This document shows, one piece after another, positions 7,326-25,680 of a DNA stretch of 64,000 nt. How positions within the stretch are numbered: the stretch's first letter is position 1; each line of letters begins with the position of its first letter. The translations under genes and the position numbers were made by a program. The stretch is from Thermodesulfobacteriota bacterium. GTDB lineage: Bacteria; Desulfobacterota; WTBG01; CAIYCZ01; CAIRTM01. The stretch covers positions 10,711-74,710 of the forward strand of contig JANQFE010000096.1 in NCBI GenBank assembly GCA_028278025.1. Direction: 5' to 3'. The notes under the pieces were generated by a model. It did not search any database. It was not told where the DNA came from and saw nothing but the letters and a program-made list of their open reading frames with translations.

Positions 7326-7431
7326 ATGATTCTCAAAAAAAGAAAAAAAGCCATCACAATTGTTGAGATGGCTTTCTAATAACTATTAGGAAAAGATGCC
7401 AGTGTTAAAGAACACTAACAAGTTTGATCAT

Positions 7432-8103: not shown

Positions 8104-8131
8104 TAGTCGCAGGAAGTAAAAAATTATTCTA
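8104..8131 (-). promoter_or_regulatory. ECF-type promoter motif (TAGAAT-N16-CTGCGACTAA) upstream of the 7432..7980 gene
   Basis: 'tagtcg' at 8104-8109 and 'attcta' at 8126-8131. Confidence 0.55.
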
Positions 8132-8210
8132 AAAAAATATTTTTTAGCAGATTTATTAAATTTAATGGGCATGAACAGGAATAAAGATATAAATAGCTGA
8201 TTAAGGCAGG

Positions 8211-8248
8211 AATAGTTAATTCCCGCCTATAGGCGGGAATTAACTATT
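8211..8248 (-). terminator. Perfect 38-bp palindrome (aatagttaattcccgcc-tata-ggcgggaattaactatt) between the lipoprotein gene and the promoter of the next gene; putative terminator or operator
   Basis: Read directly. No canonical U-tract on either side, so a protein-binding site is equally possible. Confidence 0.35.
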
Positions 8249-8279
8249 AGTAAAAAAGTAAGATGTAAGTATGTACCGT

Positions 8280-9005
8280 TTATTTTACAGCTATAATCTG
8301 CGGTTGCATTTCATACTGCGAATCAAGGCGTGCAATGCTGGTGGCCTGTATCTGGGCCACACGTTCAAGCAGCTTACTGCTTACAAAGGACCTGTATGAA
8401 TACTCAACCTTATCGGAAAACTCAGTGGTTATACCGGGATCATGATTTTGTGAATAGACCGCGCCGGCGCCCAGTGCACAAAGCCCCCACCCCGGGGCAA
8501 ACCAGCCCAGCAGAGAGGTTGCCGCACCTCTGCTGAAACTGGTGTATCTGATTTCATATGGAGTAACAATATTAAACTGATTGATTAATCTGCCGGTTTT
8601 AGGGTCAAGCACACGCACATCAGTATCAACTTCTATATAATACTTATACCCGAGCCAGGCATGCGAAAAGACCAGAAAGCCGGGAAATGCGATAGGAATA
8701 TTTTGAAGGGATGATTTATACTTAACTGTTTTATTAAGATCGCATATATAATCAAGGTCCATCCCGGCAGATGTATGACAATCCTTTTTTACGGCCTCAA
8801 CTGAAGAAGAAAGGCTTGTCTCGCTAATAATGGACCTGAGCAGGCGGTCCTGGGTCGGTGCAAATCCAAGTTTAACTGTTTCTCTTTGATAGGCATTTAC
8901 GGGTGTAAAAACATCTCTGTTGGTAACTTTAAGCGGGTGAGTGCACCCCATTGCTGCAAAAATGCTGGTGGCCAGTAAGCATATAATTTTTGTTGCTGTT
9001 TTCAT
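8280..9005 (-). CDS. Lipoprotein of unknown function
   Basis: ATG at 9005 with an AAGGAG SD. Signal 'LLATSIFAAMGC' (lipobox). Confidence 0.6.
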   Translation of the reverse strand: MKTATKIICLLATSIFAAMGCTHPLKVTNRDVFTPVNAYQRETVKLGFAPTQDRLLRSIISETSLSSSVEAVKKDCHTSAGMDLDYICDLNKTVKYKSSLQNIPIAFPGFLVFSHAWLGYKYYIEVDTDVRVLDPKTGRLINQFNIVTPYEIRYTSFSRGAATSLLGWFAPGWGLCALGAGAVYSQNHDPGITTEFSDKVEYSYRSFVSSKLLERVAQIQATSIARLDSQYEMQPQIIAVK

Positions 9006-9276: not shown

Positions 9277-12108
9277 CTAATATGTCATAATGTCAGCAGA
9301 TTCAAAGATATTCTTAATGGTTTTTTTCTTTAGGTATGGTTTTACAAGTGAAAGATTATGTTTCAAAGTTGGAGGAGAGCTTTTTTGCAAGTCTATAAAA
9401 GCCTGCATCAAGCTGTTAACAAGTTCTTGGGGAAGTGCAACAGATTTATTCTTAAGGGCAGTATCTGTGATTAGAGCAGCAGAAGAAATTAATTCTAAAC
9501 AGCGCTGACTAAGTTTGGGATCTTTTTTTATAATATTCCAAACACCACAGGCTAAATCATAGTAGAGATCAACCAGCTGCCTTCCCGCTGGTGATTTTAC
9601 TAATATTTCATCACGAAACATCCTGAGTAGAATCAAATGATTATTCTGAGAAGTTTTTTCTACTAAATATTTAACAGGGCAGGTGCTGTTGTCCGGAGAT
9701 GTTCCGTTGTCATCATCATCATTTTCACCGACAACAGGCTTCATAATAATATCCTTATATACAACAGAACCGGGTGTGACCACTACAAGCGGAGTTGTTT
9801 CCTGGGTATAATATTTATGGTCTGATGACAGCATATGTTCACCGGCAGAGGCCAGGACTTCATAATAACCATCATGGTCACTGGTGTACTCGGGGCTGCC
9901 CTTGCAGGTAACGGTGGCATTATCGAGCAGATCTCCGGAGTCTGTTTTAACATATCCGTGAATTAAACCTATCAAACCTGATGAGGCCTCAAATAGCCCA
10001 GATGATGTACCTGCAAAGATAGGAGATAACGATAAAGGGGCACTTTTTTTAAGATGCAGGACTCGCGCAGATGTGCTGCCGGAAGCTGCTGAAGTATTTG
10101 CGTTTATGGTATGCAGGCTGTGCCCTGTAAGGCCTGCCTTGTTCCAGTACTCCCCGCCGTTGAGGCTCATATACACACCGCCAAAACTTACAAGGTCTTT
10201 ACGGTAGGCCATTGATAAACCTTGATAAACTATGTTGCTGTCTGATTTGTCGACACTAATGTCGGCTATGGTAAATTTCTCGGGCAATCCTTCAGATTTG
10301 TTTAACCAAGACGAACCACTGTCAGTGCTTTTGTAGATTCCGTTGCTGCGGCAGGCAGCATAAATTATATCAGGAGAAGAAGGTGCAAGTGCCAGCGCAT
10401 TTACGACTTCTTCATGTAAAGCTGTCTGCGACCACGTATCACCGCCATCAGTGCTTGCATACAGACCACCTGGCTTAACAGGAGAATAAACGTTCCCGGC
10501 ACCTGCAAAAATAATAGTTGAATCCTGTTGATTTACGGCAAGAACATTAATATCACAATCTGCCTGAAGCACTGTTTCAATTGTGCTTTTAGAGAAATTT
10601 TTTTGAGGGTCATCATCTATTCTTACAATCTGTCCTTTCGTGCCTGAAGAAAAACCAACCGCAGCTAAAACAATATCATTACCGGTTTCTTTCTCAATAA
10701 CGGCAATTGAATTTATGGAATTTGTATTAATAAGGTCCGGTAAATAGCGATACTGCCAGGTTGTGCCGCTGTCAGTGCTTTTTCCAAGTTTCCAAGCAAA
10801 ACCGGCATAGATAATATTTTTATCTTGAGGGTGAAAGCGAACAGCTTTACTAGAGTTTTTTTCAATGTGCTTCCATTCAGTATCAGTTTTAAGAAAAACA
10901 CCCGCAACAGTGCTCGCTACGATAGTTGAGGAATTATCAGGAGCAAAATCAGTTGAAAAAATTGCATTTGCCTTAATCCCGCTGTTTATAGTTTCCCAGG
11001 TTTCAGCGCCGTCGTTTGATTTAAAGATGCCGTTATGAATGCCGCCGGCATATATAGTATCTGGATTAAAGGGGTCTGATGCCAGCTTATAGAAATCATC
11101 AGGGGTTTCAAAAAAGTCCCAGGTAGCACCTTTATCAACGCTTTTAGCAATTGTTTTACCGGCAAGTCCAGCGAAGACGGTATCAGGTTCGGAGTTTGGA
11201 ATGCATAAAGTGTATGTAGGCTCGGCTAGCGATGTCCAGTACCAAGAACCGCTTTTAAGCGGACCGTCAACCTTGCGGGCTACACCTTTTGATCCACATG
11301 TAAAAAGAACAGATGGGTCAGAAGGATGAACTGCAATTGAGCCAAGCCAGCCAAACGAGCCAGAACCTTCATCTCCATAGGCTTCTGACCAGCTATGCCA
11401 TGTTGTACCGTTATCAGGGGAAACATACACAATGCCGTTTGTTTCAAACACACCCCATGATGAAGAAATTCCCCACAATTCACCAGGTTGTTGAGGGTTG
11501 ATGCCCAGGTCAATAATCGCATAAGGTGCCTCAAGGGACATTTCTTTGAAAAGAATAGACCCCTCAGTGCTTCGATAGAAATAACCGTAGCCATTATCAC
11601 TTGTTGGCCCGGTTCCAATATATATTGTATTACCCGTAGAATCGTGTGGATCAACTTCAACATTATGGCAAAAAAGCTTTGAAAATACTCCGTTAATGAA
11701 TCCGATATTCCATGTTTCACCATAATCGTAGCTGACATCAGTAAACATATTGGATGACACCCATATGGTTGACGGGTTGTTCGGATCAATATCAATGTCA
11801 AAAACTTCACGGTTGCGAAACCAGGTGTTGTTGTCGGTGGGGATTGTAATCCATGTCTGACCGCTGTCAGTGGTTCTGAACAGGCCGTCACCGTTCCAGC
11901 TGCCGGCATACAGTATCGAGCTGTCATCGGGATCAATAGCAAGGGATAGAATCTGACCGCCATACAGCCCCAAGTCTTCCCAATAAGAGTTTTCCTGTTG
12001 AGCATGTGCAGGGCAAAAAGTGCAAAATAGGATTAAAGGCACACAAAATGCAACATATGTGCAAAGTATTATAGAGTTGAGGGTGTTGAATATTTGATAT
12101 AATTTCAT
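9277..12108 (-). CDS. Secreted BNR/Asp-box repeat protein (sortilin/Ycf48-like beta-propeller repeats), followed by a carboxypeptidase-regulatory-like domain and the conserved C-terminal domain (CTD-B)
   Basis: The ORF track's 9277..12348 overlaps the upstream gene. The real start is ATG 12108 (MKLYQIF...CPAHAQQ signal). Eight or more S/TxDxGxTW motifs (TTDSGQTW, SYDYGETW, SPDNGTTW, VDKGATW, SNDGAETW, STDSGTTW, STDGGDTW, STDSGSSW). C-terminus 'LRMFRDEILVKSPAGRQLVDLYY'. Confidence 0.8.
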   Translation of the reverse strand: MKLYQIFNTLNSIILCTYVAFCVPLILFCTFCPAHAQQENSYWEDLGLYGGQILSLAIDPDDSSILYAGSWNGDGLFRTTDSGQTWITIPTDNNTWFRNREVFDIDIDPNNPSTIWVSSNMFTDVSYDYGETWNIGFINGVFSKLFCHNVEVDPHDSTGNTIYIGTGPTSDNGYGYFYRSTEGSILFKEMSLEAPYAIIDLGINPQQPGELWGISSSWGVFETNGIVYVSPDNGTTWHSWSEAYGDEGSGSFGWLGSIAVHPSDPSVLFTCGSKGVARKVDGPLKSGSWYWTSLAEPTYTLCIPNSEPDTVFAGLAGKTIAKSVDKGATWDFFETPDDFYKLASDPFNPDTIYAGGIHNGIFKSNDGAETWETINSGIKANAIFSTDFAPDNSSTIVASTVAGVFLKTDTEWKHIEKNSSKAVRFHPQDKNIIYAGFAWKLGKSTDSGTTWQYRYLPDLINTNSINSIAVIEKETGNDIVLAAVGFSSGTKGQIVRIDDDPQKNFSKSTIETVLQADCDINVLAVNQQDSTIIFAGAGNVYSPVKPGGLYASTDGGDTWSQTALHEEVVNALALAPSSPDIIYAACRSNGIYKSTDSGSSWLNKSEGLPEKFTIADISVDKSDSNIVYQGLSMAYRKDLVSFGGVYMSLNGGEYWNKAGLTGHSLHTINANTSAASGSTSARVLHLKKSAPLSLSPIFAGTSSGLFEASSGLIGLIHGYVKTDSGDLLDNATVTCKGSPEYTSDHDGYYEVLASAGEHMLSSDHKYYTQETTPLVVVTPGSVVYKDIIMKPVVGENDDDDNGTSPDNSTCPVKYLVEKTSQNNHLILLRMFRDEILVKSPAGRQLVDLYYDLACGVWNIIKKDPKLSQRCLELISSAALITDTALKNKSVALPQELVNSLMQAFIDLQKSSPPTLKHNLSLVKPYLKKKTIKNIFESADIMTY

Positions 12109-12142: not shown

Positions 12143-13495
12143 TTAAAAATGAATAATAACTGATGCCATAAACAGATGCTGGGTAACATCCGCATCAGTT
12201 GAAGGTATATCCAGAACCTCTCCCTCAACATCCTCTCCCCGGCGAAACTGGTAGGCAAAATCAAAAACAAGCCTTCCAGCTGAAAAACCTGTGCCCAGAG
12301 AAAATCCCCAGAAATCTTCAGGGCTTTTATTAGACGGCTCAGGATCATAAAAAAGTCCGCAACGCAACGGAATGATGGTTTTTACAAATATAAGGAGATA
12401 TTCTGCACCCAGTCTAATCTGGTGGGTTGCATTAACATGACTATCTTGTGAAGACTCACCGGTGATAGGACTTTTACGTTTGCCTTTACCGTTTTCAAGC
12501 ACAAAATGAGACCATTCAGTTCTGTGTACATCGAGTGAAAGAGTAAGTGTATCAGAAAAACGTAATGCAATCCCAAACCCATACGATAGGGGTATTTCAA
12601 GATCAACATCCTCGTCTATACGTGTTACCGAAGTGCTGGCAAAGCCTGTGGGCGGCTTCATTGTGATTTTTCCCACACGTTCATGCTGCAATTCACCGGT
12701 AAAGGGGGTCTTAATAACGCCGCCGATTGTTATATACCTGTTGATGTCCCATAAAAAACCAATATGCATGTTAAAACCGGAAAAGCCGTAATACCTGTCG
12801 CGGTCTTTAGATTTAAACTTTGTCGGTGCTCGTCCCGGACGAGATATTGCACCTGTAATAATAGTATCCGACTCCCAACCGTTACTCCAAAAAAGATTGT
12901 CAGTCCAAATATTGCATGTAAATCCAAAAGAAATATCGGGGGTAATTTGAATGGCATAAGCAGGAGATAGCGCACTCAGTTTGCCACGCTGGCGGAAATC
13001 CATATGCTGCTCGAAACGAACGGCAGGATTGTTAGACCGGGTAATAAAATCTGTTTCAATATTGCGATCAAATTCATAAAGGCGCTGGTAGTTAAGCGAA
13101 ACAATCATGTTGCGCTGAAACAGTTTGAAAGGATAAGCAATGCTCAAGTAATTAAGGTCTTTGCTGAGACTTCGCTGCAGTCCAGCCGCTTCAGGGTGAC
13201 TTTTTGAACTGTAATCCTCACGACGTCTGAAATAAGAAAACGCAAAAGAAATCTCGGGCTTACGCAGTTGAGTCAGACCGGCAGGATTCCATGAGGCTGC
13301 GGTGGCATCATCTGCAACAGCAATAAAGGCGCCCCCCATACCAACAGCGCGGGCACCTGAGCCAACAGGGTTGGGTGATGATGCTATAGTAATTTTTTGA
13401 GGTGCAGTTTGTGCCGAAACTGCAGTACACAATACGCCACCTGTAAGGCATAAAAAAATGAAATAAAAAAAACAGCGTAGAAGAAACAGTCTCAT
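12143..13495 (-). CDS. FadL/TodX/OMPP1-family outer-membrane beta-barrel (hydrophobic-substrate transporter family, which also contains T9SS PorV)
   Basis: Signal peptide. 'GMGGAFIAVADDATAASWNPAGL', the family-typical NPAGL N-terminal motif. C-terminal aromatic (..HF). The ATG overlaps the stop of the upstream gene (ATGA coupling). Confidence 0.8.
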   Translation of the reverse strand: MRLFLLRCFFYFIFLCLTGGVLCTAVSAQTAPQKITIASSPNPVGSGARAVGMGGAFIAVADDATAASWNPAGLTQLRKPEISFAFSYFRRREDYSSKSHPEAAGLQRSLSKDLNYLSIAYPFKLFQRNMIVSLNYQRLYEFDRNIETDFITRSNNPAVRFEQHMDFRQRGKLSALSPAYAIQITPDISFGFTCNIWTDNLFWSNGWESDTIITGAISRPGRAPTKFKSKDRDRYYGFSGFNMHIGFLWDINRYITIGGVIKTPFTGELQHERVGKITMKPPTGFASTSVTRIDEDVDLEIPLSYGFGIALRFSDTLTLSLDVHRTEWSHFVLENGKGKRKSPITGESSQDSHVNATHQIRLGAEYLLIFVKTIIPLRCGLFYDPEPSNKSPEDFWGFSLGTGFSAGRLVFDFAYQFRRGEDVEGEVLDIPSTDADVTQHLFMASVIIHF

Positions 13496-15618
13496 TTTGT
13501 GATTACTTTATCATTAATCTTAAGGTCTCGTTCTGTAAATTTTTCAAGAATCTTACCTTTAGCAAATTCTTTATTGACCTCTGTTGCAGTCACCAGCCCG
13601 AGAACCTCTGTTTTTCGGCCAAGTATTTTTTTTGTAACAGGATGTATGAGAGGGTCATTTTCTCTGAAGGCCAGAAGCTTCATGCCTGTGCATAAAGAAT
13701 GAGAGCTGCCAAGATCAATTGTTATGCTGCGTAATTTTTTACTGATTATGGTTCCTTCACACAAAGGAAAATGTTGTTTAAATTTAAGCGCAAGTCCTCC
13801 GATAGCATCACGAAGACCACGCAGATTTTCTCCTTCCCAGTATACGTCCTTTTCAGCCAGGATAAGGGATGTTTCCGTATCTACCATACGTGCAATAATT
13901 TCCACAGATTGTTCAGTTGTAAAAATGTCTCCAAGCAAAACTGTTTCAGATGCCATCAAACGGCCAAGACGAATAGCGGTCTGCTGATCAAAGATAGATT
14001 CCTGAGAGAGTTGCTGTTCAGTAAGCAATTGCTCCAATTGCTTTCTTTCAAGCACATTAAACCGTTTCTGCTGCACGAAGCATTTGGTTAGAAAAGATTC
14101 AATATAATCAGCCAGAGGCTCAGTATTTTGTTTGCTCTCTCTAAAAGGATAAATTGAAACAGTTAGGCGGGAGCCAACTTGTCGAATTGCAGGAATTTTT
14201 CTAATTACGGAAACAGCCTTGGTTATAGTTAAACCCTTGTGGTCAATAAGTTCAACAGAGACGGTATTTGCCTTTTCGTGCAGCTGTATAAGTTTGCTAA
14301 AGGAAAGTGTTTTCCTGGTGCTCTTGCCGAGCTCTCTTAAAAATGCCTTAAAAGATTTGTTCATGTCGGACTGTAGAAGTGATTGACCATTAACCCTTAT
14401 ATCTTTTATTCCCGCCGGAGTATAGACAAAGCCCTCAAGAAAAAGTGTATCTGATAAAACAGTTTGACCATCTTCACAGCCCTTCAGCTGAATATAAGGT
14501 TGTGACGGATGAGACGTTTGAGAATGGTAAGCTGTGAAATTACGTTCTGTTTGTCCAGAAGGTATTTTCATGACAGGAAGTGCTTCTCCAGAATATGCTA
14601 TAAGGGGTAATTTTGACGGAGGGCAGGAACTGGTTGACGAAACAACATGGATGAATCCGGTTGTGTGATTGCCGGCACGGTCTACTGCAACAAACTGAAT
14701 TTTATTCCCGCCTGATAATGTGTCCGACCTTACATAATAATTAATTTTTTCAAATTGCTTGTAACCAATCGGCAGATTGTTGTTGTTGATTGTAACTTTT
14801 GAGAGGGCTGAACTGTCAAAAACTGCACCACTGATATGGATTGTGTTATTGCCATCAGGCCTGGCTTCCAGAAAAACCAAAGGACCATTTCGATCAACCG
14901 TTACCTCAAACTTTACCGGAGGTGATTTTTTTTCAGTTAAATCCTCTGCCTGGACTGTAATAAGATTTTTTCCGTCATGAAGAATGATTTCTTTATGAAA
15001 TGTGACATCTTTTTGTGAAAGTTCAAGTGAAGTGGGGTTTCCGTTAACCAAGATTTTTGAAACATAGAAATCATCATGTGCAGAGCCGCTTACATTCATT
15101 GATAAGCTGCTGGTTACATAATCACGAGTGGGTGTAACCACTGCAAGGGTAGGTGGCATAGTATCTAAGCCTGTTTTTTTAAGCAGCTTTTGCCGGGCCT
15201 TATTAAGGTAAAATACAGCCCGGGCAGTTTTGAAATCTGAAAGAGATGCCTCAAGAGACTGAATGGCTTCTTCATGATTACCAAGATGATAACAGGCTAT
15301 TCCCAACTCACGTTTAGGGAAATAGTCTATAAAATGCATTCCATAAGTGCGGGCTCTGCGCTGATCCTTATCTCGCTGGGCAATTGCCTGTTTAAAATCT
15401 GATGAAGCGTCCTGCCAGAAGCCTCCCTGGCTGTATGAAAGACCGCGAAGGTAGTAATCGTTCCATTTTTCTTTAAAAAGGCCATCAACTGTACCGTAAA
15501 GCATGCCGTCCTTTTCGTAGACCGTGCTTTCTTTTACAGCACAGCTGTATTGCAGAAATGCAAAAATGACAGTGAAAACAAAAAAAATAGAATATATCTT
15601 TTTATATAACCAGCACAT
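13492..15618 (-). CDS. Lipoprotein with N-terminal TPR-like region, central Ig-like/beta region and C-terminal CsgG/HfaB-like domain
   Basis: ATG at 15618. 'FNVLERKQLEQLLTEQQL...AIRLGRLMASETVLLGDI' resembles the CsgG core LERxxLxxLLxE ... lG..lGAdylv.G. Confidence 0.55.
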   Translation of the reverse strand: MCWLYKKIYSIFFVFTVIFAFLQYSCAVKESTVYEKDGMLYGTVDGLFKEKWNDYYLRGLSYSQGGFWQDASSDFKQAIAQRDKDQRRARTYGMHFIDYFPKRELGIACYHLGNHEEAIQSLEASLSDFKTARAVFYLNKARQKLLKKTGLDTMPPTLAVVTPTRDYVTSSLSMNVSGSAHDDFYVSKILVNGNPTSLELSQKDVTFHKEIILHDGKNLITVQAEDLTEKKSPPVKFEVTVDRNGPLVFLEARPDGNNTIHISGAVFDSSALSKVTINNNNLPIGYKQFEKINYYVRSDTLSGGNKIQFVAVDRAGNHTTGFIHVVSSTSSCPPSKLPLIAYSGEALPVMKIPSGQTERNFTAYHSQTSHPSQPYIQLKGCEDGQTVLSDTLFLEGFVYTPAGIKDIRVNGQSLLQSDMNKSFKAFLRELGKSTRKTLSFSKLIQLHEKANTVSVELIDHKGLTITKAVSVIRKIPAIRQVGSRLTVSIYPFRESKQNTEPLADYIESFLTKCFVQQKRFNVLERKQLEQLLTEQQLSQESIFDQQTAIRLGRLMASETVLLGDIFTTEQSVEIIARMVDTETSLILAEKDVYWEGENLRGLRDAIGGLALKFKQHFPLCEGTIISKKLRSITIDLGSSHSLCTGMKLLAFRENDPLIHPVTKKILGRKTEVLGLVTATEVNKEFAKGKILEKFTERDLKINDKVITK

Positions 15619-15660: not shown

Positions 15661-17778
15661 TTAATTAGATTCAACAACTCTCAGGCCTGGTACAATATTT
15701 TTTTTACTGCTAAGAATAGTCGCATACGAGTGATCCGGCATTGTTTGTACAGTCTTCAGCAATCCTATATGCTCCTTGTCATATGCAAGAGAAAGGTCAG
15801 ATTCGGCTAAGGAGTCATTTGTTGGAAGGATTGAGAAATCAGTACCCACTTGAACGCCACTGTCTGCACCGATGTTTAGCAGGACTTTTTCATTTTGCAA
15901 ACGGATGATTTTACCTTTAACTGGATAGAGGGACCTTGCTTCTTTTATAAGGGAGTTTGATAAATTATTAACAATAACCTTGGCGGCCCTGTTATCCAAC
16001 TCCTCATGCAATGCAATAATAATTTTAGAAGTGTCAGTTTCAAAAACACGTAAATTGACAGTAGTCAGATTTTTCAGCTTTACAATTTTTCCAACACCAA
16101 TGAGCCTGGCACCCATAAGCTTGCCGAGCATGGCAAGTGCCAAGGACTGATCGGCAATATCTGAGGTGCTGATCTGCAATTCTTTCAGCAGGGCGTTGAT
16201 TTTTTCACGCTCTACGAGTTGAACCCTGCCTGTGTTTATGAGTTCTCTGGAAAGGCTTGTGGTAAAGTATTGTTCAAGATTCTCACTGTCTTTAATGTTG
16301 CCAACACAGCTAAATCCAAGTATTGACATCGTCAAAGGGCTTGATGTCCATGAATCTACAGGATGTGATGAGCCCTTTATTTTTTTTTGTTTTTCATATT
16401 TTTCAGTAAGAGCTTTTAGAATAACTCGAATATTATCAGTAGAAGGTTTTACGGACTTAACGGCAGTTATAGAAGTTTTGTCAGTATGTTTTTGTTTAAG
16501 AAAAGGAAGTTTATCATGAGAGAGAAAAAGCAGAATAAATATTGCAGTTAAAAAAATGATGACAGAAGAAATTGTAAAGTTAAAGGTTTTGCGGTCAAGA
16601 GGAAGTGATCTTGTTGATCCTGTTGCAAGGGCCTCTTTATGCGTAGACATTTCTTCATAGGGCAGTTTTTTGTCTGCAGAAGAAAACTGGTTGTCATCAA
16701 GATAATTGAAAGATGGATGGCCATACAGAACATAGCTTGCCCAGATAATATTGCTCTCACCGTAAATGGAAATAAGATGCTCGCGAGACTTTTTTACAGC
16801 CTCTCCAATACAACAACCTTGGATAAGTTTTTGATAAAAACAAACAGAAAATTCACGGCTTGCATCATCCAGGACTTCCCAGAAGGTGCCGATGTAATGC
16901 AGTACTCCTGACACTAGAAATGAATGCGCAAGGCCGAAGATGTTAGTTTCAAAATCTTCATTAAGTTTCCATTCAAGTGTCTGGCCTGACTGGCAGGCAT
17001 TGGCAAAGATAAGATTAGGGAAAGGCCTGTTGCGCGACATGTGCATGATATCATGTGAAGTGAATTTACCGTTTTCCAGCAGCCAGCCGCTTTGTGAAGG
17101 ATCAGCAGCAACATAATCAGCATGGCCTGCATAGTGAATAATATCATAGTTGCGTATGTAGTCCCTTAATGTGGAGTTGTTGACTCTTCGATTAAAAAGA
17201 TCTGCGTGTATTAGTGCGGGGCTTTTATCCAGTTCAGATCTAATAAGGCTACCTTCAATGTAAGCATTTTCAAGATCGCCACTGGGGTCACACAAAATTA
17301 GAATTTTTAAGGGCGACGAGATCTTTTTGGGTTTTGGCTTGACGATGTTTTGATGGGTGCGCACAACCCTGCCTACATTAAATTTCCTGCAAAGGAAATC
17401 GCTGCCGTCATACAAAAGTTCCCAGGGAATATGGACCAGTCCGTCATCAATATTAATGATAAGGTTTTCAGAAGCAGTTTTGGAAAGCTCTTTTTGAACA
17501 TTGTGGGGCAATAAATCTTCAAAAAGCGAGAAACCGGTATTCTTTAATTGAGCAAGATTTTCTCCGGCAAGTGCGCCTCTCAGATTAGCATTGTTAAGCA
17601 GTCGGGTAAATTCTTTGCATTTATTAGTTATAAGATATGGATCAATGGTTTGCTCTGAAATATGTCTTAGCGTATCCTCTTCTATGTTTGTCTTAGTAAA
17701 GATACCAACCTTCAGACGGGTATGCTCTCGTGATAATTCAATTTCAATTGTTTTTTGCTGGTGGTCGTGTGTGCTCAT
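15661..17778 (-). CDS. CHAT-domain (caspase-like, clan CD) peptidase fused through a TM helix to a C-terminal CsgG-like domain
   Basis: ATG at 17778. 'HYAGHADYV' and 'FANACQSGQ' are the His/Cys dyad motifs of CHAT/caspase-HetF. TM helix 'VIIFLTAIFILLFLS'. C-terminus 'VQLVEREKINALLKELQ...LAMLGKLMGARLIGVGKI' (CsgG-like). Confidence 0.7.
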   Translation of the reverse strand: MSTHDHQQKTIEIELSREHTRLKVGIFTKTNIEEDTLRHISEQTIDPYLITNKCKEFTRLLNNANLRGALAGENLAQLKNTGFSLFEDLLPHNVQKELSKTASENLIINIDDGLVHIPWELLYDGSDFLCRKFNVGRVVRTHQNIVKPKPKKISSPLKILILCDPSGDLENAYIEGSLIRSELDKSPALIHADLFNRRVNNSTLRDYIRNYDIIHYAGHADYVAADPSQSGWLLENGKFTSHDIMHMSRNRPFPNLIFANACQSGQTLEWKLNEDFETNIFGLAHSFLVSGVLHYIGTFWEVLDDASREFSVCFYQKLIQGCCIGEAVKKSREHLISIYGESNIIWASYVLYGHPSFNYLDDNQFSSADKKLPYEEMSTHKEALATGSTRSLPLDRKTFNFTISSVIIFLTAIFILLFLSHDKLPFLKQKHTDKTSITAVKSVKPSTDNIRVILKALTEKYEKQKKIKGSSHPVDSWTSSPLTMSILGFSCVGNIKDSENLEQYFTTSLSRELINTGRVQLVEREKINALLKELQISTSDIADQSLALAMLGKLMGARLIGVGKIVKLKNLTTVNLRVFETDTSKIIIALHEELDNRAAKVIVNNLSNSLIKEARSLYPVKGKIIRLQNEKVLLNIGADSGVQVGTDFSILPTNDSLAESDLSLAYDKEHIGLLKTVQTMPDHSYATILSSKKNIVPGLRVVESN

Positions 17779-17835: not shown

Positions 17836-18705
17836 CTATTGAATCAGAAATTGAACTCTTTTGATTTCCCTGCGGTTTCTGGATAATACTATATGATAAG
17901 TTCCAGGAGATATATCCTTAAACAGCGCCTTACCATCTTCTAGGAAGAGCGACACTATTTCGAGGGTATCATGAAACAAAGAAACTCTGATATTATCAAG
18001 AGAAGAGCGTAGGCCTGATGTTGAGAGAAAAACCAACACTTCAAATTTTTGTTTCTCAAGTTCTTCTATTTCAATTTTCAGCTCAATTCCCCCGGACCTG
18101 TCCATGATAATGGATATGTTTTCCTGGAGTTTTCTTTTACCCTTTCGAACCATTATAAGCTGCGGTTCAGATTGAGGAATAAAAAGTTCGGCAACAAAAT
18201 CCCTGCATTTTTGGAGAATGGATTTAGTAAGGTGTATCATTTGTGTGCTTAATGAAGTGTCAGTGCTTTTGCTAAGAGGATATTCCCGTGAGACTGCTTT
18301 AAGAAAACTATGCAGCCCATCTACTGGTTCCTTATGAAAAGTCATTTTTTGCATATCCTGCTCAAGATCAAGAAGCTGTGAGAAATATCTGTTACAGTCA
18401 GTACAACTATTAAGGTGTTGTTTAATTTCTTTTAGGCCCTTATCAGATAGCATTTCTCTCTGGTTAGCATACGCGACAAGAAGATCAGGGTCAATACAAC
18501 TGGAATCTGCATATTTTTCTGCAAGAACTGTCCTGTGTGTTGATAATGCGGCATCAATTTCACGCAGTTTTATAATCTCATGTCTGCATGCGGAGCACCC
18601 ATCAATATGTGCTGCAAGCGTTTTCATATCATTGCCGTTTAACTGCTTTTCAAGATAAAGCAGTAATTTGTCATTGAGCTCAGGTTTATCACATTGTGCT
18701 TTCAC
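17836..18705 (-). CDS. Anti-sigma factor, zinc-finger (ZAS, HxxxCxxC) type
   Basis: GTG start at 18705 overlaps the sigma stop (GTGA). 'HIDGCSACRHE'. Second Cys pair 'CTDC'. Position is immediately downstream of the ECF sigma gene. Confidence 0.65.
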   Translation of the reverse strand: MKAQCDKPELNDKLLLYLEKQLNGNDMKTLAAHIDGCSACRHEIIKLREIDAALSTHRTVLAEKYADSSCIDPDLLVAYANQREMLSDKGLKEIKQHLNSCTDCNRYFSQLLDLEQDMQKMTFHKEPVDGLHSFLKAVSREYPLSKSTDTSLSTQMIHLTKSILQKCRDFVAELFIPQSEPQLIMVRKGKRKLQENISIIMDRSGGIELKIEIEELEKQKFEVLVFLSTSGLRSSLDNIRVSLFHDTLEIVSLFLEDGKALFKDISPGTYHIVLSRNRREIKRVQFLIQ

Positions 18706-19304
18706 AAAAGATCTCCCTTGTTTTGTTCACAAAGGTTTCTCAACTCCAACAAACAGCGTTTCAGTCGTGACGCCACAGTGCCCATAGGAATATTAAGGGT
18801 AGATACAATTTTGTCATATGAAAAGTTATCAAAATATTTTAGTTTTATGATCTCACGGCACTTTGTTCCTATATTATCAAGAGCTGATGTCAGCAGCTCA
18901 CGTGTCTCGGTGCATTCAAGATGGTCATAAAAAGAAGAGTGCGTGTCTTCCAGTACCAAGCGGGGGGAGCCATCTTCATCTGCAGCATCAATTGACAAAC
19001 AGTTTTTTTCCCCCTCACGTTTTTGGGCTGTGATTTTTCTGATTTCTGAAACACATTTGTTTTTAGCGATATTTGAAGCAAAGGTTTCAAGAGAACAGTC
19101 AAATTTGAACGATTTTAATGAAGTGACAAGACCGGTAAATACTTCCTGTATTATTTCCTCTGCATCCTCAAAGTCAAAATTCCATTTTTTCCAATGGGCA
19201 ACGAACCGGATAGTATTATAGGTTCGTTTATAGAGGATGGACCAGGCTTCTTCGCTGCCGGTCAGGCATTGCGTAACAAGTTCTTTATCATCCTGCACTG
19301 CCAA
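18702..19304 (-). CDS. ECF-family RNA polymerase sigma-70 factor
   Basis: Sigma-70 region 2 ('EAWSILYKRTYNTIRFVAHW...EDAEEIIQEVF') and region 4 ('YFDNFSYDKIVSTLNIPMGTVASRLKRCLLELR'). The ORF track starts at 19460. A GAGGAGG SD 8 nt upstream of TTG 19304 gives an ECF-typical length of about 200 aa. Confidence 0.85.
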   Translation of the reverse strand: MAVQDDKELVTQCLTGSEEAWSILYKRTYNTIRFVAHWKKWNFDFEDAEEIIQEVFTGLVTSLKSFKFDCSLETFASNIAKNKCVSEIRKITAQKREGEKNCLSIDAADEDGSPRLVLEDTHSSFYDHLECTETRELLTSALDNIGTKCREIIKLKYFDNFSYDKIVSTLNIPMGTVASRLKRCLLELRNLCEQNKGDLL

Positions 19305-19876
19305 GAATGTTTCCTCCTCAAAGATATATATAACCAGATAACAAAAAGCTTTTGTATCTATAGATAAACATAAGCAATGCCTTTTCTCTGGAAGGTAGAT
19401 ACAGTAAACTGTAATATGATTGTGGTTTTGACGTCTGTTTGCTCTAATATTTTTTCTCATTTTTACATAAATTGCAATAAATAAACAGGATTAGAATTAT
19501 TTTTATTATAATCTATAATTAATTAGCTATTGTTAAAATTTTATTTCCCTTTTGGTGCAATGCTTAAAAGACATAATTAGAATACAATGAAAAATGGAGT
19601 TTCTCTAATATCTATTGTCGCAATCTGAAATAATTTGTTTCTAAAAAATGATTTATTTATTCAATCAACATAACAATCATTTTTCGCTCAGTTGATGCTG
19701 TTGGAAACAAGACCACATTTAATGCAGATGATTTCAAATGAAATGAGAAGTTTTATCAAGTGAGGTTTTTTCCTCAGGTGATAGCGAAGAACTAAAATTT
19801 TATTTAAAATATGATGGTTTAGAAAATTTTGCATAATGTTCACCTTTAGTGTTGGGTTGTTACTATTCAATGAATT

Positions 19877-20169: not shown

Positions 20170-22131
20170 TCAAACATCTGAGGGCGTGATCAATTCCCAT
20201 GTAACCATAAATTCATTCAGGTAAGATATCTGATCATTACTTCTGTAGCGGACGGCTATAACTTTTTCGCCGTTCAGCCATACCCGCCCATTGGAAACTG
20301 TTTGCTTCAGCGGATCATTAGGTTTGCCAAGATGCCCGGGTGTAATATAGGGGCTGATCCAAATTCCCGAAATCGCATTGTCAGGAACGATTCTATGGGT
20401 AACCACCTTGCCATTGCAGAGTTTGTAATCGATAAACATTTCACGTTCTTTATATAATAGTCGTTTCACCCGGCCAAAGAAAGTTCTTTGGAAAAACGTT
20501 TTTGCACGCAAGATTGTTTCCTGGTGCTCTGGAATAGTAATCCACTCTTCCCAGGCAGCGGTGATCGTATCGGTTTCCTCGGGCATTGAGAACAGGGGGG
20601 ACGCGCTTTTTGATAACAGCATTACATGGTTAGCTGCGAGGTGTAGGTAATAATTGCGTATGATCTCAAATATTGTGTTGGGTTCATCACTGAGCAGATA
20701 CCTATTGTCTATGCTAATGAAATTATTTTTATTGTTTTTAACGTTCCACAGGATAAAGTCAGGAGCGGAGGTGCTCTTTATAAAGTCAGCGTTTTTGGCA
20801 TCAAGCCAGGGTGTATACGCAATATAGGATTGAAAAACCGGCCGAGGATGCCAGTTTAAACTATTTGCAAAAACGTACGCTGTTTCCCAGGGATAAATAT
20901 CAACAGGGGCTTGTGAGATTGTATTGAGAATTTTTTTGTCGATAACATAGTTCTGCAAATATTTTTTTGAATAATTGTTAATATTTTTTTCAAAATTTCT
21001 TATTTTGAAGATTGTAGAAAAATTATTATACCGTTTTGAATAAAAAGATTTTTTAATATGTCTCATAAGAAAATCTTTGGTGTGAAAATATGGAAGACTG
21101 TTGATCGTTATAGTAACCAGTATCATAGAGATGATCAGCAGTAAAAGGCAGTACATTTTGTGTTTTATACTGTCGGCATATATAAACAAAATGGTGAGCA
21201 TTATAAAAATTAAAACCAGGAAATATGGAGCATGACCTACCCTGGAAAATGAGTATTTAAACCAAACAGCCATTGGTAATAAAAAAATGAAGCTAAACTT
21301 TTTAACCCGAGAGGGTTGTGACAGGATAAATATACAAATCAACAATAGTGCTATGACAAAAGGTATCCAGTTCATGGACGCACTTTTACTCATTGCACTG
21401 GAATTGCCGGAAGAAAGCTCAAGGGTTGCTATAACAAAATTATAGAGTGTTATAATGCTTCCAACGGCAATACTCCAGAGTACAACTAAGCAAAGCAAAG
21501 CGGTTCCCGCTGTTGACAAAAGCATTTTTATTTTTTTGGTAGAGGGATACCTTATAAGAATATAAGATATTAAAAATGCCAGGGAAAGGATTGTATATGC
21601 AGGTTTTACCAGGAACATAAAGGCTGATAAAAAGGCAGCAATAAAGAGAAAATGCGCTAGGTTCCATTTGTCTGCGATACATATAAGCAAAACTATAAGG
21701 GCAACGGTAATTTCACCGGTACCGAAATAGACAAGTACATTACCGAGAAAAAATGAAATTATCAGTACAGCTGTTTGTAAAAAACGGTTTGTATTGGATA
21801 TTGTTGAAAAAAGTATCTGAAAATAGCACAGTATAAAACCAAGCAGGATCAGGGTATAAAAAACAGTACCGAATAAGATATTGTGGCCGACCGGCTGCGG
21901 TACCAATAAAAAACCTAGAGGACCGTATGTAAAAAAAATATCTTTACCGACAAAAATATTATTATCAAAAAAATAATTAAGGGCTGCCTCGTAAGATGGA
22001 TCAAGGCCGGGTATGATCGGTCTTCCGATGAGATGAAAACTAAACATGAAAAACAGACCGGAGATTGCCAGGGGATAAATAATGTGCTTGTTTGGAGGAA
22101 TATCGATATTTTTTGAAACGGTCGGCGACAT
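20170..22131 (-). CDS. Polytopic integral membrane protein (more than 10 TM helices) with C-terminal soluble domain, function unknown (possibly envelope glycan-related)
   Basis: Long hydrophobic segments throughout the N-terminal 350 aa. Adjacent to an LtaS-like sulfatase-family gene. Confidence 0.55.
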   Translation of the reverse strand: MSPTVSKNIDIPPNKHIIYPLAISGLFFMFSFHLIGRPIIPGLDPSYEAALNYFFDNNIFVGKDIFFTYGPLGFLLVPQPVGHNILFGTVFYTLILLGFILCYFQILFSTISNTNRFLQTAVLIISFFLGNVLVYFGTGEITVALIVLLICIADKWNLAHFLFIAAFLSAFMFLVKPAYTILSLAFLISYILIRYPSTKKIKMLLSTAGTALLCLVVLWSIAVGSIITLYNFVIATLELSSGNSSAMSKSASMNWIPFVIALLLICIFILSQPSRVKKFSFIFLLPMAVWFKYSFSRVGHAPYFLVLIFIMLTILFIYADSIKHKMYCLLLLIISMILVTITINSLPYFHTKDFLMRHIKKSFYSKRYNNFSTIFKIRNFEKNINNYSKKYLQNYVIDKKILNTISQAPVDIYPWETAYVFANSLNWHPRPVFQSYIAYTPWLDAKNADFIKSTSAPDFILWNVKNNKNNFISIDNRYLLSDEPNTIFEIIRNYYLHLAANHVMLLSKSASPLFSMPEETDTITAAWEEWITIPEHQETILRAKTFFQRTFFGRVKRLLYKEREMFIDYKLCNGKVVTHRIVPDNAISGIWISPYITPGHLGKPNDPLKQTVSNGRVWLNGEKVIAVRYRSNDQISYLNEFMVTWELITPSDV

Positions 22132-22325: not shown

Positions 22326-24059
22326 TCACTGTATATATCCAAGCTGTTTCAATTGTTCAATCTGCTCTTTATCATAAGAGATAGGGCCTTCTGAATTTTT
22401 TGAGGCGTGCCCTTGCACGATGATTGAATGCAGCTGTTCCGACTCTGCAATTTTTTCTGCAATTTTTTCAGTAAGTGTCTTTTTGATAGGAATATTGTTA
22501 GCTGCAAGATTGTTTTGCTCAAGAGGATCGTTTTCTATATTGAACAGCTTCAGCCTTTTTTCTTCCAGTCCCTGATCGCTCATCAATTTCCAGCGCTTTG
22601 ACCGGACAAAGAAACTACCTTTCAAGTTAAAACCATACACATATTCTTTACCCTCACCATTACCGTATAACAGATTTTTAAAGCTTTTTCCCTGAACACG
22701 TGCAGGTGTTGTAATATCCAGCAAGTCAAGTGTTGACGGCATTATATCAATTGATTCCACTAACCCTGCAATTCTTCTTTTATCGGCAGATTGTATTGGG
22801 CTGCCGTGTGGCAGTTTAATGATTAAAGGAACATGTATAAGCTCGTCATAATAATACGGATTGCTGTGAAGCAGATAACCATGCTCCTGGAACTCTTCGC
22901 CATGGTCTGAAGTAATGATTATCAGGGAGTTTTCATAGAGATCAAGTTCTTTAAGCATGGCAAAAAAGTCCCCAATACACTGATCCATGTAGGCAATGCT
23001 ATTATCATACAGTGCAGCAAGGTAGTCTAATTGCTCTTTAGTTAAGGCCTGTTGACGCTTATTTATGTGAACCATTGCGATAGAGGCGGATTCTTCAGTA
23101 AATCCAAGGTCAATCGAATTCAATTTTGTAAACAGAGTATTAAAAGGGGGGGGTGAGCTATAGGGAGTTTGGCCGTGGTCGGAGTGTACATCGAAAAAAT
23201 GCACAAAGAGAAAAAAGTTCTTCTTAACATTTTTTTGCAAATAGTTTTTTATAAAAACGGTTTGAAATTCAGCATTTCTAGAAGGCTCGCTAGGACTGTA
23301 ATTAAAAAGCTTTATATATGAATCAAACCCCTGATAAAATCCCGCTTGTGCATCCATAAAAATGCCGGCATTTGCAAAAGCCAATGTCTGGAAGCCTTCA
23401 TTCTTAAGAACTTCAGCCAACGTTACAAATGCAGGACTTAAGGCCCTCCCGGTATAAAGATCAACCTTTTGAGTGATAGGGTAAAGAGAAGTAAGCATAG
23501 ACATGTGTGAAGTGAGCGTCCAGGGTTCATGTACAAAACAGTTTTCAAACAAAATATTATCTTTTGCAAAAGCGTCAAGATAGGGGGACGTGTTACGGGT
23601 GTATCCATAGCAACCCAAATGATCGGCTCTGAGGTCATCAATTGAAATAAGTATAATGTTGGGATAGTGGGGTGTGCGATCAATAACTGCTATAACCACT
23701 ATATTAAAAGATACAACACCCGCTAAAAGTATGTATGCAGGCATCCTAACCCAGGTGCGGTCAAACAATGCTGCATATCGTGTAAAATATACTGTTATAG
23801 GCTTTTTGTAAAGCAGTTGAAAGCAGTACAGAGCGCCTAACAAAATTACTATGATGCAGACAGCGCATATACATGCTGCCAGCAACCAGTAATTAAGATT
23901 CTCCTGGAAAGAATAAAAAATAAGTCTGTTTAAATTATGGGTGCTATAATTGTTGAGCGTAACGACCTGTGCTGCTTTGACTGCACCAATAACAGATCCA
24001 ATAATGACCGCTAAGCACAGCGGTCCTCGACATGCCTTTTTCCACATAATACCTTCCAA
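22326..24059 (-). CDS. Membrane-anchored sulfatase / alkaline-phosphatase-superfamily protein (LtaS/phosphoglycerol-transferase-like)
   Basis: N-terminal TM helices. 'ILISIDDLRADHLGCYGY', the sulfatase-family metal-binding N-terminal motif. 'ITSDHGEEF'. Confidence 0.75.
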   Translation of the reverse strand: MEGIMWKKACRGPLCLAVIIGSVIGAVKAAQVVTLNNYSTHNLNRLIFYSFQENLNYWLLAACICAVCIIVILLGALYCFQLLYKKPITVYFTRYAALFDRTWVRMPAYILLAGVVSFNIVVIAVIDRTPHYPNIILISIDDLRADHLGCYGYTRNTSPYLDAFAKDNILFENCFVHEPWTLTSHMSMLTSLYPITQKVDLYTGRALSPAFVTLAEVLKNEGFQTLAFANAGIFMDAQAGFYQGFDSYIKLFNYSPSEPSRNAEFQTVFIKNYLQKNVKKNFFLFVHFFDVHSDHGQTPYSSPPPFNTLFTKLNSIDLGFTEESASIAMVHINKRQQALTKEQLDYLAALYDNSIAYMDQCIGDFFAMLKELDLYENSLIIITSDHGEEFQEHGYLLHSNPYYYDELIHVPLIIKLPHGSPIQSADKRRIAGLVESIDIMPSTLDLLDITTPARVQGKSFKNLLYGNGEGKEYVYGFNLKGSFFVRSKRWKLMSDQGLEEKRLKLFNIENDPLEQNNLAANNIPIKKTLTEKIAEKIAESEQLHSIIVQGHASKNSEGPISYDKEQIEQLKQLGYIQ

Positions 24060-24114: not shown

Positions 24115-25680
24115 TTAATCTTTTTCTCCAAACCCTCCGCCACCGGGAGTTTCAATACGCAGGTGATCACCTTTGTATAAGGTCATATTGAATTTGCCGG
24201 GTTTATGCTTTGTAACGCCGTTTTTTATGACACTGTTTTTACCAGGCTGTCCATGACTGCCGCCAAAAAGACCATAGGGAGCGTGTGTGCGTCTTTCAGA
24301 CAAAACGGTTACCTCGGCATCTGAAAGCAGTTGTATCTCGCGCACAACACCATCACCTCCATTAGACCGCCCTCTGCCGCCGGATCCCCTGCGCACCGAA
24401 TATTCTTTTACGAGAAAAGGGCAGGTGTATTCTAAAGCCTCTACCGGTGTGTTCAGAGTATTTGTCATGTGGGAATGAACTGCACTTTCACCATGATGTC
24501 CTGCTGTTGCACCCATTCCCCCTGCAATGGTTTCGTAGTAGGCAAATGGTTTCCCGGTTCTATGGTCAAGACCGCCGATAGCAACGTTGTTCATGGTACC
24601 CTGACTTGCAGCAGGAATGCTACCAGGAAGTGCCTGCGACAGGGCTCCCAGGACCAGATCGACAATCCTCTGCGATGTTTCAACATTACCGCCGGCAACA
24701 GCGGCAGGAAATCGTGCATCAACAATGGAACCTTTTTCTGTAGTTATGCTGATAGGCCGCAGGCAGCCTGCATTAGCGGGAATGTCTTCGGTAACCAGAC
24801 ATCTAGATGTATACAAAACGGCAGAGAGCGTTATAGCATAGACCGCATTAATACAACCTGAAACCTGGGGTGCTGACTGTGAAAAATCCAGAACAGCATT
24901 TTCGTTGTTAATCTCAAGCATAAGACTAAGAGGAATATGCTCTGAGGAAAATCCGTCGTCATCCATAACATCTTCAAACCGGTAGAGACCATCGGGGATA
25001 CTTTTAATGGTTTTGCGCATAATGCGTTCAGCATAGTCCATGAGGCTGCGAGAGTAAAAAAACACGGTTTCAAAACCAAATTTGTCGATAAGCTGTTTCA
25101 TCCGGCGGACGCCCGTCGTATTTGCCATGATCTGAGCGGCAAAATCTCCTTCCCGTTCTGTCGGGGTCCTCACATTGCTTAAAAAAAAGTCCATAACTTT
25201 TCTGTCTATATTACCCCGGTCAACAAGTTTTAAGGGTGGTATAATCAAACCTTCCTGATAAATAGATGATGAAAGCGGCATGGATCCCGAACTTATCCCG
25301 CCAACATCTGCATGATGGGCACGGTTGGCAATATAAAAGGATGGTGAATCGTCCCGGACAAACACAGGTGCTACAAGTGTAATATCCGGTAAATGAGTAC
25401 CCCCTTTATAAGGGTCATTTAATATTACCATATCTCCCTCGCTGAAGACCGTACTTTCTATGGCAGATTTTACCGATAAAGGCATGGAGCCAAGATGTAC
25501 AGGTATATGGGCAGCCTGGGCGATCATGTCACCCTGCTGATCAAATACTGCACAGGAACAGTCCCGTCTCTCTTTGATATTTGGCGAAAAAGATGTGCGC
25601 GTTAGGGTGACCCCCATCTCTTCTGCAATGGAAGCAAAACGGTGTTTAAAAAGTTCAAGGAGAATGGGGTTTGGCAGCAT
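24115..25680 (-). CDS. hyuB: Hydantoinase B / 5-oxoprolinase (HyuB) family protein; could be an acetone/acetophenone-carboxylase-type subunit
   Basis: Whole-length HyuB-like sequence ('...LTRTSFSPNIKERRDCSCAVFD...'). Confidence 0.85.
   Translation of the reverse strand: MLPNPILLELFKHRFASIAEEMGVTLTRTSFSPNIKERRDCSCAVFDQQGDMIAQAAHIPVHLGSMPLSVKSAIESTVFSEGDMVILNDPYKGGTHLPDITLVAPVFVRDDSPSFYIANRAHHADVGGISSGSMPLSSSIYQEGLIIPPLKLVDRGNIDRKVMDFFLSNVRTPTEREGDFAAQIMANTTGVRRMKQLIDKFGFETVFFYSRSLMDYAERIMRKTIKSIPDGLYRFEDVMDDDGFSSEHIPLSLMLEINNENAVLDFSQSAPQVSGCINAVYAITLSAVLYTSRCLVTEDIPANAGCLRPISITTEKGSIVDARFPAAVAGGNVETSQRIVDLVLGALSQALPGSIPAASQGTMNNVAIGGLDHRTGKPFAYYETIAGGMGATAGHHGESAVHSHMTNTLNTPVEALEYTCPFLVKEYSVRRGSGGRGRSNGGDGVVREIQLLSDAEVTVLSERRTHAPYGLFGGSHGQPGKNSVIKNGVTKHKPGKFNMTLYKGDHLRIETPGGGGFGEKD

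Follow-up and report, generated by a model that had tools for sequence, protein, structure and literature searches.

The 64,000-nucleotide (nt) stretch analysed here, referred to as the window, comes from contig JANQFE010000096.1 of a Thermodesulfobacteriota bacterium (assembly GCA_028278025.1). Its minus strand carries six genes head to tail. They encode a sigma factor of the extracytoplasmic function (ECF) type, an anti-sigma factor, a CHAT protein, a probable lipoprotein with tetratricopeptide repeats (TPRs) and Ig-like domains, a FadL/PorV-like beta-barrel, and a BNR/sortilin protein (Table 1). The sigma and anti-sigma genes overlap by 4 nt, as do the lipoprotein and barrel genes. Gaps of 57 nt, 42 nt and 34 nt separate anti-sigma from CHAT, CHAT from lipoprotein, and barrel from BNR protein, respectively.

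The CHAT protein belongs to a family of membrane-anchored CHAT proteins that is abundant but uncharacterised, and it lies within a conserved ECF sigma/anti-sigma envelope cassette. The system is a variation on two known kinds, regulated anti-sigma proteolysis and HetF-like membrane CHAT proteins.

Table 1. Cassette genes, features within them, and neighbouring genes, in positions of the window
Feature	Position	Strand	Details
ECF-type sigma factor, first cassette gene	18702..19460	-	Pfam Sigma70_r2, Sigma70_r4_2, Sigma70_ECF; NCBIfam TIGR02937, E=3e-25
Soluble zf-HC2 anti-sigma factor, CHCC-type	17836..18705	-	289 aa; Pfam zf-HC2, E=7.8e-8
Anti-sigma, extra N-terminal motif region	18526..18705	-	aa 1-60
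Anti-sigma, zinc motif C70...H97-x3-C101-x2-C104	18394..18498	-	88-93% conserved in 60 homologs; invariant in 17-homolog alignment
Anti-sigma, Arg187 codon ('V-R' motif of linker)	18145..18147	-	97% of 60 homologs; candidate cleavage or recognition residue
Anti-sigma, C-terminal beta-sandwich, family-specific	17842..18117	-	aa 197-288; eight strands, AlphaFold2 pLDDT 85-94
CHAT-TM-module protein	15661..17778	-	705 aa; cytoplasmic CHAT protease, single TM helix, periplasmic two-domain module (predicted topology)
CHAT domain (clan CD, caspase-like)	16720..17529	-	aa 84-353; PF12770, E=2.9e-29
Catalytic His219 codon	17122..17124	-	within CHAT domain
Catalytic Cys262 codon	16993..16995	-	within CHAT domain
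TM helix	16519..16584	-	aa ~399-420; KD19 maximum 2.73
Periplasmic alpha/beta domain	15928..16335	-	aa ~482-617; TolB-N/LpoB/FlgT-N/CsgG fold class; 'VERE' and 'ETxTS' motifs
FlgT_C-like small beta-barrel	15670..15918	-	aa ~621-703; motif YPLxGKI...LNIGxxxGV; Pfam, Foldseek, AlphaFold2
Exported TPR/Ig-like (Glucodextran_B) protein with paralogous module copy	13492..15618	-	Pfam, signal peptide, Cys
FadL/PorV-like outer-membrane beta-barrel	12143..13495	-	Pfam Toluene_X, E=6.5e-17; signal peptide; C-terminal ...HF signal
Secreted BNR/sortilin-type beta-propeller protein, last gene of run	9277..12108	-	Pfam Sortilin-Vps10, E=1.1e-22
Three open reading frames without Pfam match	6619..9005	-	180-240 aa each
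PKD/Ig-repeat protein	3007..6465	-	1152 aa
Polytopic membrane protein without Pfam match	20170..22131	-	653 aa
Membrane-anchored sulfatase	22326..24059	-	PF00884, E=2e-50
Hydantoinase/oxoprolinase B/A pair	24115..27807		

The CHAT protease domain and membrane topology

The CHAT protein is composed of an N-terminal protease domain, one transmembrane (TM) helix, and a C-terminal module. A first-pass annotation, made from the sequence alone, had delimited the same open reading frame of 705 amino acids (aa) and described a CHAT domain with His/Cys motifs followed by a single TM helix. The gene call agrees, on the minus strand, and the domain is confirmed by Pfam profile PF12770, which is matched at positions 6-288 of 289 with 102.8 bits against a cut-off of 24. 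The motifs HYAGH and ANACQSG lie at residues 215 and 259. In an alignment of 18 full-length homologs that are 34-53% identical, H215, H219 and C262 are invariant, as are the YAGHA and NAC motifs around H219 and C262. Among 46 homologs, down to ~27% identity, the same three residues and two motifs are at least 90% conserved. The earlier concern that the two residues might vary among orthologs thus finds no support. Judged by the conservation of the dyad, the CHAT domain is predicted to be catalytically intact.

The TM helix is the sole segment with a mean Kyte-Doolittle hydropathy over 19 residues (KD19) above 1.6. The N-terminus is hydrophilic (MSTHDHQQK...) and has no signal peptide. All 18 aligned homologs have the TM helix at the same position, and none has an N-terminal signal peptide. 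The topology that the first-pass annotation had expected, an internal TM helix with no lipobox, is therefore what is seen.

Since a globular part of 395 aa without a signal peptide precedes the only TM helix, the CHAT domain is expected to lie in the cytoplasm. Relatives that carry a fused class-III cyclase point the same way. In all of those examined, the single TM helix lies 180-200 aa past the catalytic His, and no TM helix is present at the N-terminus or between cyclase and CHAT. Because nothing separates them, the ATP-using cyclase and the CHAT domain share a compartment. On the other side of the membrane, the paralogous module of the neighbouring gene is preceded by a signal peptide and then a conserved Cys, and other carriers of the module include signal-peptide proteins. 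The CHAT protein is thus strongly inferred to be a single-pass inner-membrane protein with a cytoplasmic CHAT domain and a periplasmic C-terminal module. This argument rests on the missing signal peptide and the cyclase fusions; the positive-inside rule is too weak on its own.

The C-terminal module

The C-terminal ~230 aa were first described as a CsgG core. The motifs quoted for it are present (VQLVEREK at residue 519 and LAMLGKLMGA at 548), and the Pfam CsgG profile is matched with 24.1 bits (cut-off 20.8). The match covers aa 490-568 and only positions 18-101 of the 210 in the profile; in every relative tested, only positions ~35-105 are matched. Sub-threshold matches are also found to LpoB (PF13036, E=0.0028) and to FlgT_C (PF16538, aa 629-688, E=0.031, 15.2 bits against a cut-off of 27), and relatives match FlgT_C with E-values of 1e-4 to 3e-8. 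Similarity of the protein to NCBIfam LpoB (TIGR02722) is weak and far under the cut-off. Residues E523 and R524 ('VERE'), R577, T583, P619 and G622 ('YPLxGKI') are invariant in the 18-homolog alignment.

An AlphaFold2 model of aa 455-705, built from 46 sequences, has a mean predicted local distance difference test score (pLDDT) of 85.4 and a predicted template modelling score of 0.77. The alpha/beta domain is compact (~135 aa), with strands of ~10 residues, tight turns, and no extended hairpins. The strands of the beta-barrel lie at model residues 167-249. With Foldseek, the best match of the two-domain unit is FlgT (E=1.1e-12), followed by TolB (~2e-7), LpoB (~5e-6) and CsgG (~5e-5). FlgT, TolB and LpoB rank above CsgG in both structure searches, so CsgG is not the closest structural relative. 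The module matches the two-domain fold of FlgT, in which a TolB-N-like domain is joined to the FlgT_C barrel. At the sequence level, phmmer found nothing meaningful for the region among PDB entries; only fold comparison worked.

The C-terminal region is accordingly modelled as two domains within the broad TolB-N/LpoB/FlgT/CsgG/PelC fold class, and its assignment as a CsgG core is rejected on the partial profile match, the missing hairpins and the higher scores of the other three families. A better fit to a family other than CsgG was the outcome that the first-pass annotation had itself named as refuting its assignment. The lipoprotein signal peptide and lipobox Cys of CsgG are not found in the CHAT protein, where the domain follows an internal TM helix. 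Neither csgA, csgB, csgE or csgF nor equivalent secretion partners are among the neighbours of the CHAT gene. Because it has neither a lipobox nor the hairpin-bearing second half of CsgG, the module is not expected to form a pore. The Pfam 'CsgG' match here is no sign of a secretion channel, and reading it as one is a tempting mis-annotation. What the first-pass annotation observed was largely right; its interpretation as a secretion channel is unsupported.

FlgT (of the Vibrio flagellar H-ring), the TolB N-domain and LpoB differ from the module in other respects. Identity to them is 11-17%, and the flagellar, Tol-Pal and penicillin-binding protein contexts are absent here; no flagellar gene is present in the cassette in any locus inspected. 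Here the fold makes up the extracytoplasmic end of a signalling protein.

Distribution and gene order

The fusion recurs in other genomes, where the first-pass annotation had proposed to look for it. A database search gave 567 homologs of the CHAT protein, called "CHAT domain-containing protein" where they are named. Those of the same layout are ~700 aa long, with 34-53% identity. In many others, a class-III cyclase is present at the N-terminus, TPRs at the C-terminus, or both. A scan of species-representative genomes found relatives at no fewer than 570 loci (at least 570), all in metagenome-assembled genomes (MAGs) or single-amplified genomes, with a best match of 50% identity. They belong mostly to Thermodesulfobacteriota and Nitrospirota, and some to Nitrospinota, Omnitrophota and Planctomycetota.

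The six homolog loci retrieved by exact protein, cyclase- and TPR-fused forms among them, all have this gene order, often with a giant protein rich in propellers after the cassette. For wider counts, profiles were made from seven loci and 85 distinct loci were scored, 57 of them evaluable. An anti-sigma homolog lies directly upstream of CHAT in 46 of the 57, and a sigma homolog lies upstream in 42. Among loci with the architecture seen in the window, sigma and anti-sigma genes are present in 12/14, and the lipoprotein and barrel lie downstream in 8/9 and 7/9 evaluable loci, respectively. When the search was begun from anti-sigma homologs, CHAT was the next gene in 3/3 evaluable contexts.

The anti-sigma gene is kept in 7/7 loci where the CHAT protein has no periplasmic module. 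Because this linkage outlives the loss of TM helix, module, lipoprotein and barrel, CHAT and anti-sigma form the tightest partnership in the cassette. Gene order suggests that the CHAT protein probably cleaves the anti-sigma factor to switch genes on.

Large propeller proteins follow the cassette in loci L001, L003, L006, L088 and L090. At the position of the BNR protein, other loci encode NHL/Peptidase_C13, Kelch/LamG (6544 aa) and Beta_propel proteins. In L090 (7729-9656), a Nitrospinota MAG (GCA_048054665.1), CHAT and the LpoB/CsgG-like module are called as two adjacent genes, of 362 aa and 246 aa. The split may be natural or may stem from a frameshift or an error in assembly. This cassette, too, ends in a BNR/sortilin protein. 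L074 (CAZSVW010000119.1, 3.7 kb) is binned as Candidatus Hydrothermarchaeota and encodes a relative with sigma and anti-sigma genes upstream. A binning error is more likely than an archaeal occurrence.

The anti-sigma factor

The sigma and anti-sigma proteins have the signature of an ECF sigma factor paired with a zinc-binding anti-sigma (ZAS) factor, namely Sigma70 regions 2 and 4 adjacent to a zf-HC2 (H-x3-C-x2-C) protein. A single-sequence search with the anti-sigma factor returned 2 proteins, and a profile search was used instead. The anti-sigma factor has no TM helix, with a KD19 maximum of 0.78; values above 1.6 occur in only 2 of 60 family members.

An AlphaFold2 model on 17 database homologs has a mean pLDDT of 68.8. 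Helices make up the N-terminal half, and the C-terminal beta-sandwich has conserved residues R240, E249, S252, F262 and Y270. R187 is located in a low-confidence coil (aa 171-193) that connects the beta-sandwich to the helix before it. Since R187 is conserved, lies in a predicted flexible linker and belongs to a soluble protein whose gene adjoins that of a presumably cytoplasmic clan-CD protease, it may be a site of cleavage or recognition.

The anti-sigma factor of the window also has an extra N-terminal copy of H-x3-C-x2-C (HIDGCSACRHE). The extra motif is found in full only in one other locus, L001; in L002 the His is replaced (RDCVVC), and distant members start ~50-60 aa later.

The module on other proteins

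The 228-aa module alone was searched against 1.84 billion representative proteins. Matches fall into 2,481 clusters at E<=1e-3 and 333 at E<=1e-10, and CHAT is present in only 26 of the 135 new top matches. Pfam scans of 20 further carriers, taken from the non-CHAT top matches, gave several architectures. Ser/Thr kinase-TM-TPR-module proteins are P0155, P0207 and P0229, and class-III cyclase-TM-TPR-module proteins are P0145, P0158, P0172, P0203, P0216 and P0246. Signal peptide-AhpC/TSA-TPR-module proteins are P0142, P0150, P0161, P0176 and P0192, and caspase (C14)-TPR-module proteins are P0199 and P0235. TIR-TM-TPR-module proteins are P0152 and P0190. Since kinase, cyclase and TIR proteins bear the same module, CHAT is one among several cytoplasmic output domains attached to it. 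A possible link to the Sinorhizobium receptor cyclases CyaK and NsrA was considered and dropped, as the literature consulted gave no support for it.

With an N-terminal TIR domain, one TM helix, periplasmic TPRs and the module, the layout of P0152 and P0190 is reminiscent of Toll-like receptors.

Comparison with known systems

HetF is the founding CHAT protein. In Anabaena sp. PCC 7120 it is a membrane-bound, divisome-associated CHAT-TM-TPR protein, and it shares with the CHAT protein of the window an N-terminal CHAT domain, one predicted TM helix and a C-terminal non-catalytic domain (PMC8406250). The C-terminus of HetF is instead made up of TPRs, HetF interacts with FtsI in division, and no sigma/anti-sigma cassette is reported for it. 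The match to NCBIfam HetF (NF045509) is weak, covering aa 282-390 (E=7e-6) with 24.6 bits against an equivalog cut-off of 1200. The CHAT protein is not an ortholog of HetF; the layout alone is common to both.

Craspase, of type III-E CRISPR-Cas, is the closest mechanistic analogue of the proposed anti-sigma cleavage. Its TPR-CHAT protease Csx29 cleaves soluble Csx30, which holds the ECF sigma factor RpoE, and a transcriptional response follows (PMC10028731). Craspase differs in being activated by target RNA on Cas7-11, in being entirely cytoplasmic, and in its substrate. The cassette, in contrast, has a membrane-anchored protease with a periplasmic module, lipoprotein and porin partners, and a zf-HC2 protein as the proposed substrate. 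It has no cas genes and shows no association with Cas7-11 (gRAMP), Csx30 or Csx31; cas-related Pfam matches were found neither in the cassette nor in 10 homologous loci.

DdvA/DdvS of Myxococcus xanthus is composed of an ECF sigma factor and a transmembrane CHCC zinc anti-sigma factor with a periplasmic TPR-CHAT region (PMC11506125). Like the cassette, it unites CHAT with an ECF sigma factor and a CHCC-type zinc anti-sigma domain in one signalling unit at the membrane. DdvA, however, combines anti-sigma and CHAT in a single polypeptide. Its CHAT domain lies in the periplasm, the active site of that domain is incomplete, and RseP has been proposed as a requirement for release (PMC11506125). In the cassette, CHAT would be cytoplasmic and N-terminal to the TM helix, the anti-sigma factor is separate and soluble, and the periplasmic part is FlgT/TolB-like.

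Cell-surface signalling of the FecI/FecR/FecA type likewise has an outer-membrane barrel encoded together with an ECF sigma/anti-sigma pair, and its envelope relay ends in anti-sigma proteolysis. There, Prc and RseP cut an anti-sigma factor that itself spans the membrane, and a TonB-dependent transducer serves as the barrel. In the cassette, the membrane is spanned by a dedicated CHAT protease instead; the anti-sigma factor is soluble and the barrel resembles FadL.

In a limited collection of full-text literature, no paper paired "CHAT domain" with CsgG, or an ECF-group context with CHAT, which is not proof of novelty.

Proposed mechanism and alternatives

Few groups of signal-transduction systems in bacteria are as large as the ECF sigma factors. 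To our knowledge, the mode of anti-sigma inactivation is not established for many ECF groups. In the mechanism proposed here, the barrel and the lipoprotein would together pass an envelope or surface cue to the periplasmic module, and the cytoplasmic CHAT domain would be activated in turn. Active CHAT would cut the soluble anti-sigma factor within the flexible linker, where the near-invariant Arg187 is a possible site, and the freed ECF sigma factor would transcribe the cassette and its targets. Starting from computed domains, dyad conservation, fold class, synteny and modular use, and from a strongly inferred topology, this mechanism proposes a substrate, an activation route and a cleavage site. 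That the CHAT protein is such a single-pass inner-membrane signalling protease, with a cytoplasmic CHAT domain and a periplasmic module, acting from a conserved cassette by anti-sigma cleavage, we consider an evenly balanced proposition.

A wider proposal, made jointly of two parts, is more tentative, and we lean somewhat against it. In the first part, the cassette would be an unrecognised form of cell-surface signalling, where a membrane-anchored caspase-like protease carries an envelope signal inward and cuts a soluble anti-sigma factor, instead of a membrane-spanning anti-sigma factor being cut by site-1 and site-2 proteases. In the second, single-pass envelope receptors would form a family defined by the FlgT/TolB-like module, and their CHAT, class-III cyclase, Ser/Thr kinase and TIR outputs would be interchangeable.

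If true, a dedicated caspase-like protease serving as a transmembrane transducer would be a new mode of ECF activation. Craspase-Csx30-RpoE and DdvA, both recent and isolated cases, would be tied to a system of the housekeeping type that is widespread, occurring in hundreds of genomes of sulfate reducers and Nitrospirota. A very common, unstudied periplasmic module (~2,500 protein clusters), carried by kinases, cyclases, TIR proteins and CHAT proteins, would also gain a role.

Several points weigh against cleavage of the anti-sigma factor by CHAT. Gene order alone names the anti-sigma factor as the substrate, and 11 of the 57 evaluable loci have no anti-sigma gene immediately upstream. Thiol oxidation can inactivate ZAS factors without a protease. 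The N-terminal cyclase of most relatives suggests additional or alternative outputs, and a periplasmic event would have to activate the cytoplasmic CHAT domain through one helix. The positive-inside signal around the TM helix is weak (K+R 3.17 vs 2.67). The anti-sigma model is of moderate confidence overall, and its 'disordered linker' is a prediction. Finally, no shared ECF promoter motif was found and no regulon defined: among 48 sequences upstream of sigma genes, counts of 5-mer/4-mer pairs gave only AT-rich pairs, no better than the reverse-complement control.

The main live alternative, which we hold to be unlikely, would confine the sigma/anti-sigma pair to regulation of the operon, for example as a redox ZAS switch, with CHAT working in a trans-envelope complex on another substrate. 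Candidates are the CHAT protein, the cyclase that is fused to it in relatives, and a factor required for making or anchoring the giant downstream surface protein. Redox control would agree with the CHCC zinc motif, the FlgT, LpoB, PelC and TolB-N relatives of the module are envelope-assembly or scaffold proteins, and the lipoprotein and barrel are linked to CHAT in same-architecture loci, with large propeller proteins recurring downstream. Against this alternative, the anti-sigma/CHAT linkage persists where TM helix, module, lipoprotein and barrel are gone. Redox sensing needs neither the family-specific beta-sandwich nor the conserved linker Arg of the anti-sigma factor, and exported cargo is out of reach of a cytoplasmic protease after export.

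An anti-phage or programmed-cell-death module is improbable. CHAT would here be a death protease triggered by envelope damage, as in gasdermin- or CRISPR-associated CHAT systems. The CHAT, caspase and TIR domains found on the periplasmic module are typical conflict-system effectors, DdvA and Craspase connect CHAT with ECF sigma factors and defence, and PADLOC gives the CHAT protein a weak BovA match (E=7e-4). That match is marginal, however, and PADLOC returns none for the five other cassette proteins. Genes for gasdermin, CRISPR-Cas or the cyclic-oligonucleotide system CBASS were not seen in any homolog locus listed, and the neighbours of the cassette are housekeeping and envelope genes that vary between genomes.

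It is very improbable that CHAT is a non-catalytic scaffold, or pseudo-protease, that binds the anti-sigma factor or other partners. The CHAT active site of DdvA is described as incomplete (PMC11506125), and activity of the present domain is predicted from sequence, but a dyad and YAGHA/NAC motifs conserved to the degree given above would be unexpected in a dead enzyme. The idea of a CsgG-type nonameric outer-membrane secretion channel with CHAT at the export site processing cargo, put forward by the first-pass annotation, is barely credible for a protein with a cytoplasmic CHAT domain, no lipoprotein signal peptide, a module that lies after an inner-membrane helix, matches less than half of the CsgG profile, lacks extended hairpins and resembles FlgT, TolB and LpoB more closely, and also terminates kinases, cyclases and TIR proteins.

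Other cassette genes and neighbours

The true start of the sigma gene is probably downstream of the first ATG. A generic promoter and terminator scan of positions 8000-20400 gave counts equal to those in shuffled sequence.

The TPR/Ig protein was noted by the first-pass annotation as a next gene with TPRs and the same module. TPRs are found, and the two module copies are paralogous (BLASTP, 23% identity over 185 aa, E=8e-12). Its own Pfam CsgG match has E=2.2e-8. A signal peptide followed by a conserved Cys is present in 6/7 loci, with a LAGC lipobox in L002 and L003 and AGGC in L007. The protein is probably an outer-membrane lipoprotein.

Besides FadL, the best NCBIfam matches of the barrel protein are BamG (62.5 bits) and PorV_fam (PorV/PorQ, 60.4 bits), both under their cut-offs. 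The PorV-like match is located at N-terminal aa ~45-91.

The BNR/sortilin protein is possibly a regulated target or ligand of the cassette. It has an NCBIfam F510_1955 glycosylhydrolase-like match under the cut-off, a CarboxypepD_reg-like domain, and a CFI-box-CTERM match of 36.5 bits (cut-off 40) ~75-120 aa before the C-terminus. Its open reading frame is listed from 12348, overlapping the upstream gene, and the signal peptide starts at an internal Met at nt 12108.

Just past the end of the cassette, the minus strand also carries the gene for the PKD/Ig-repeat protein, with the three shorter open reading frames upstream of it. On the other side of the cassette, the polytopic, highly hydrophobic membrane protein adjoins the membrane-anchored sulfatase, and the hydantoinase/oxoprolinase pair comes next.

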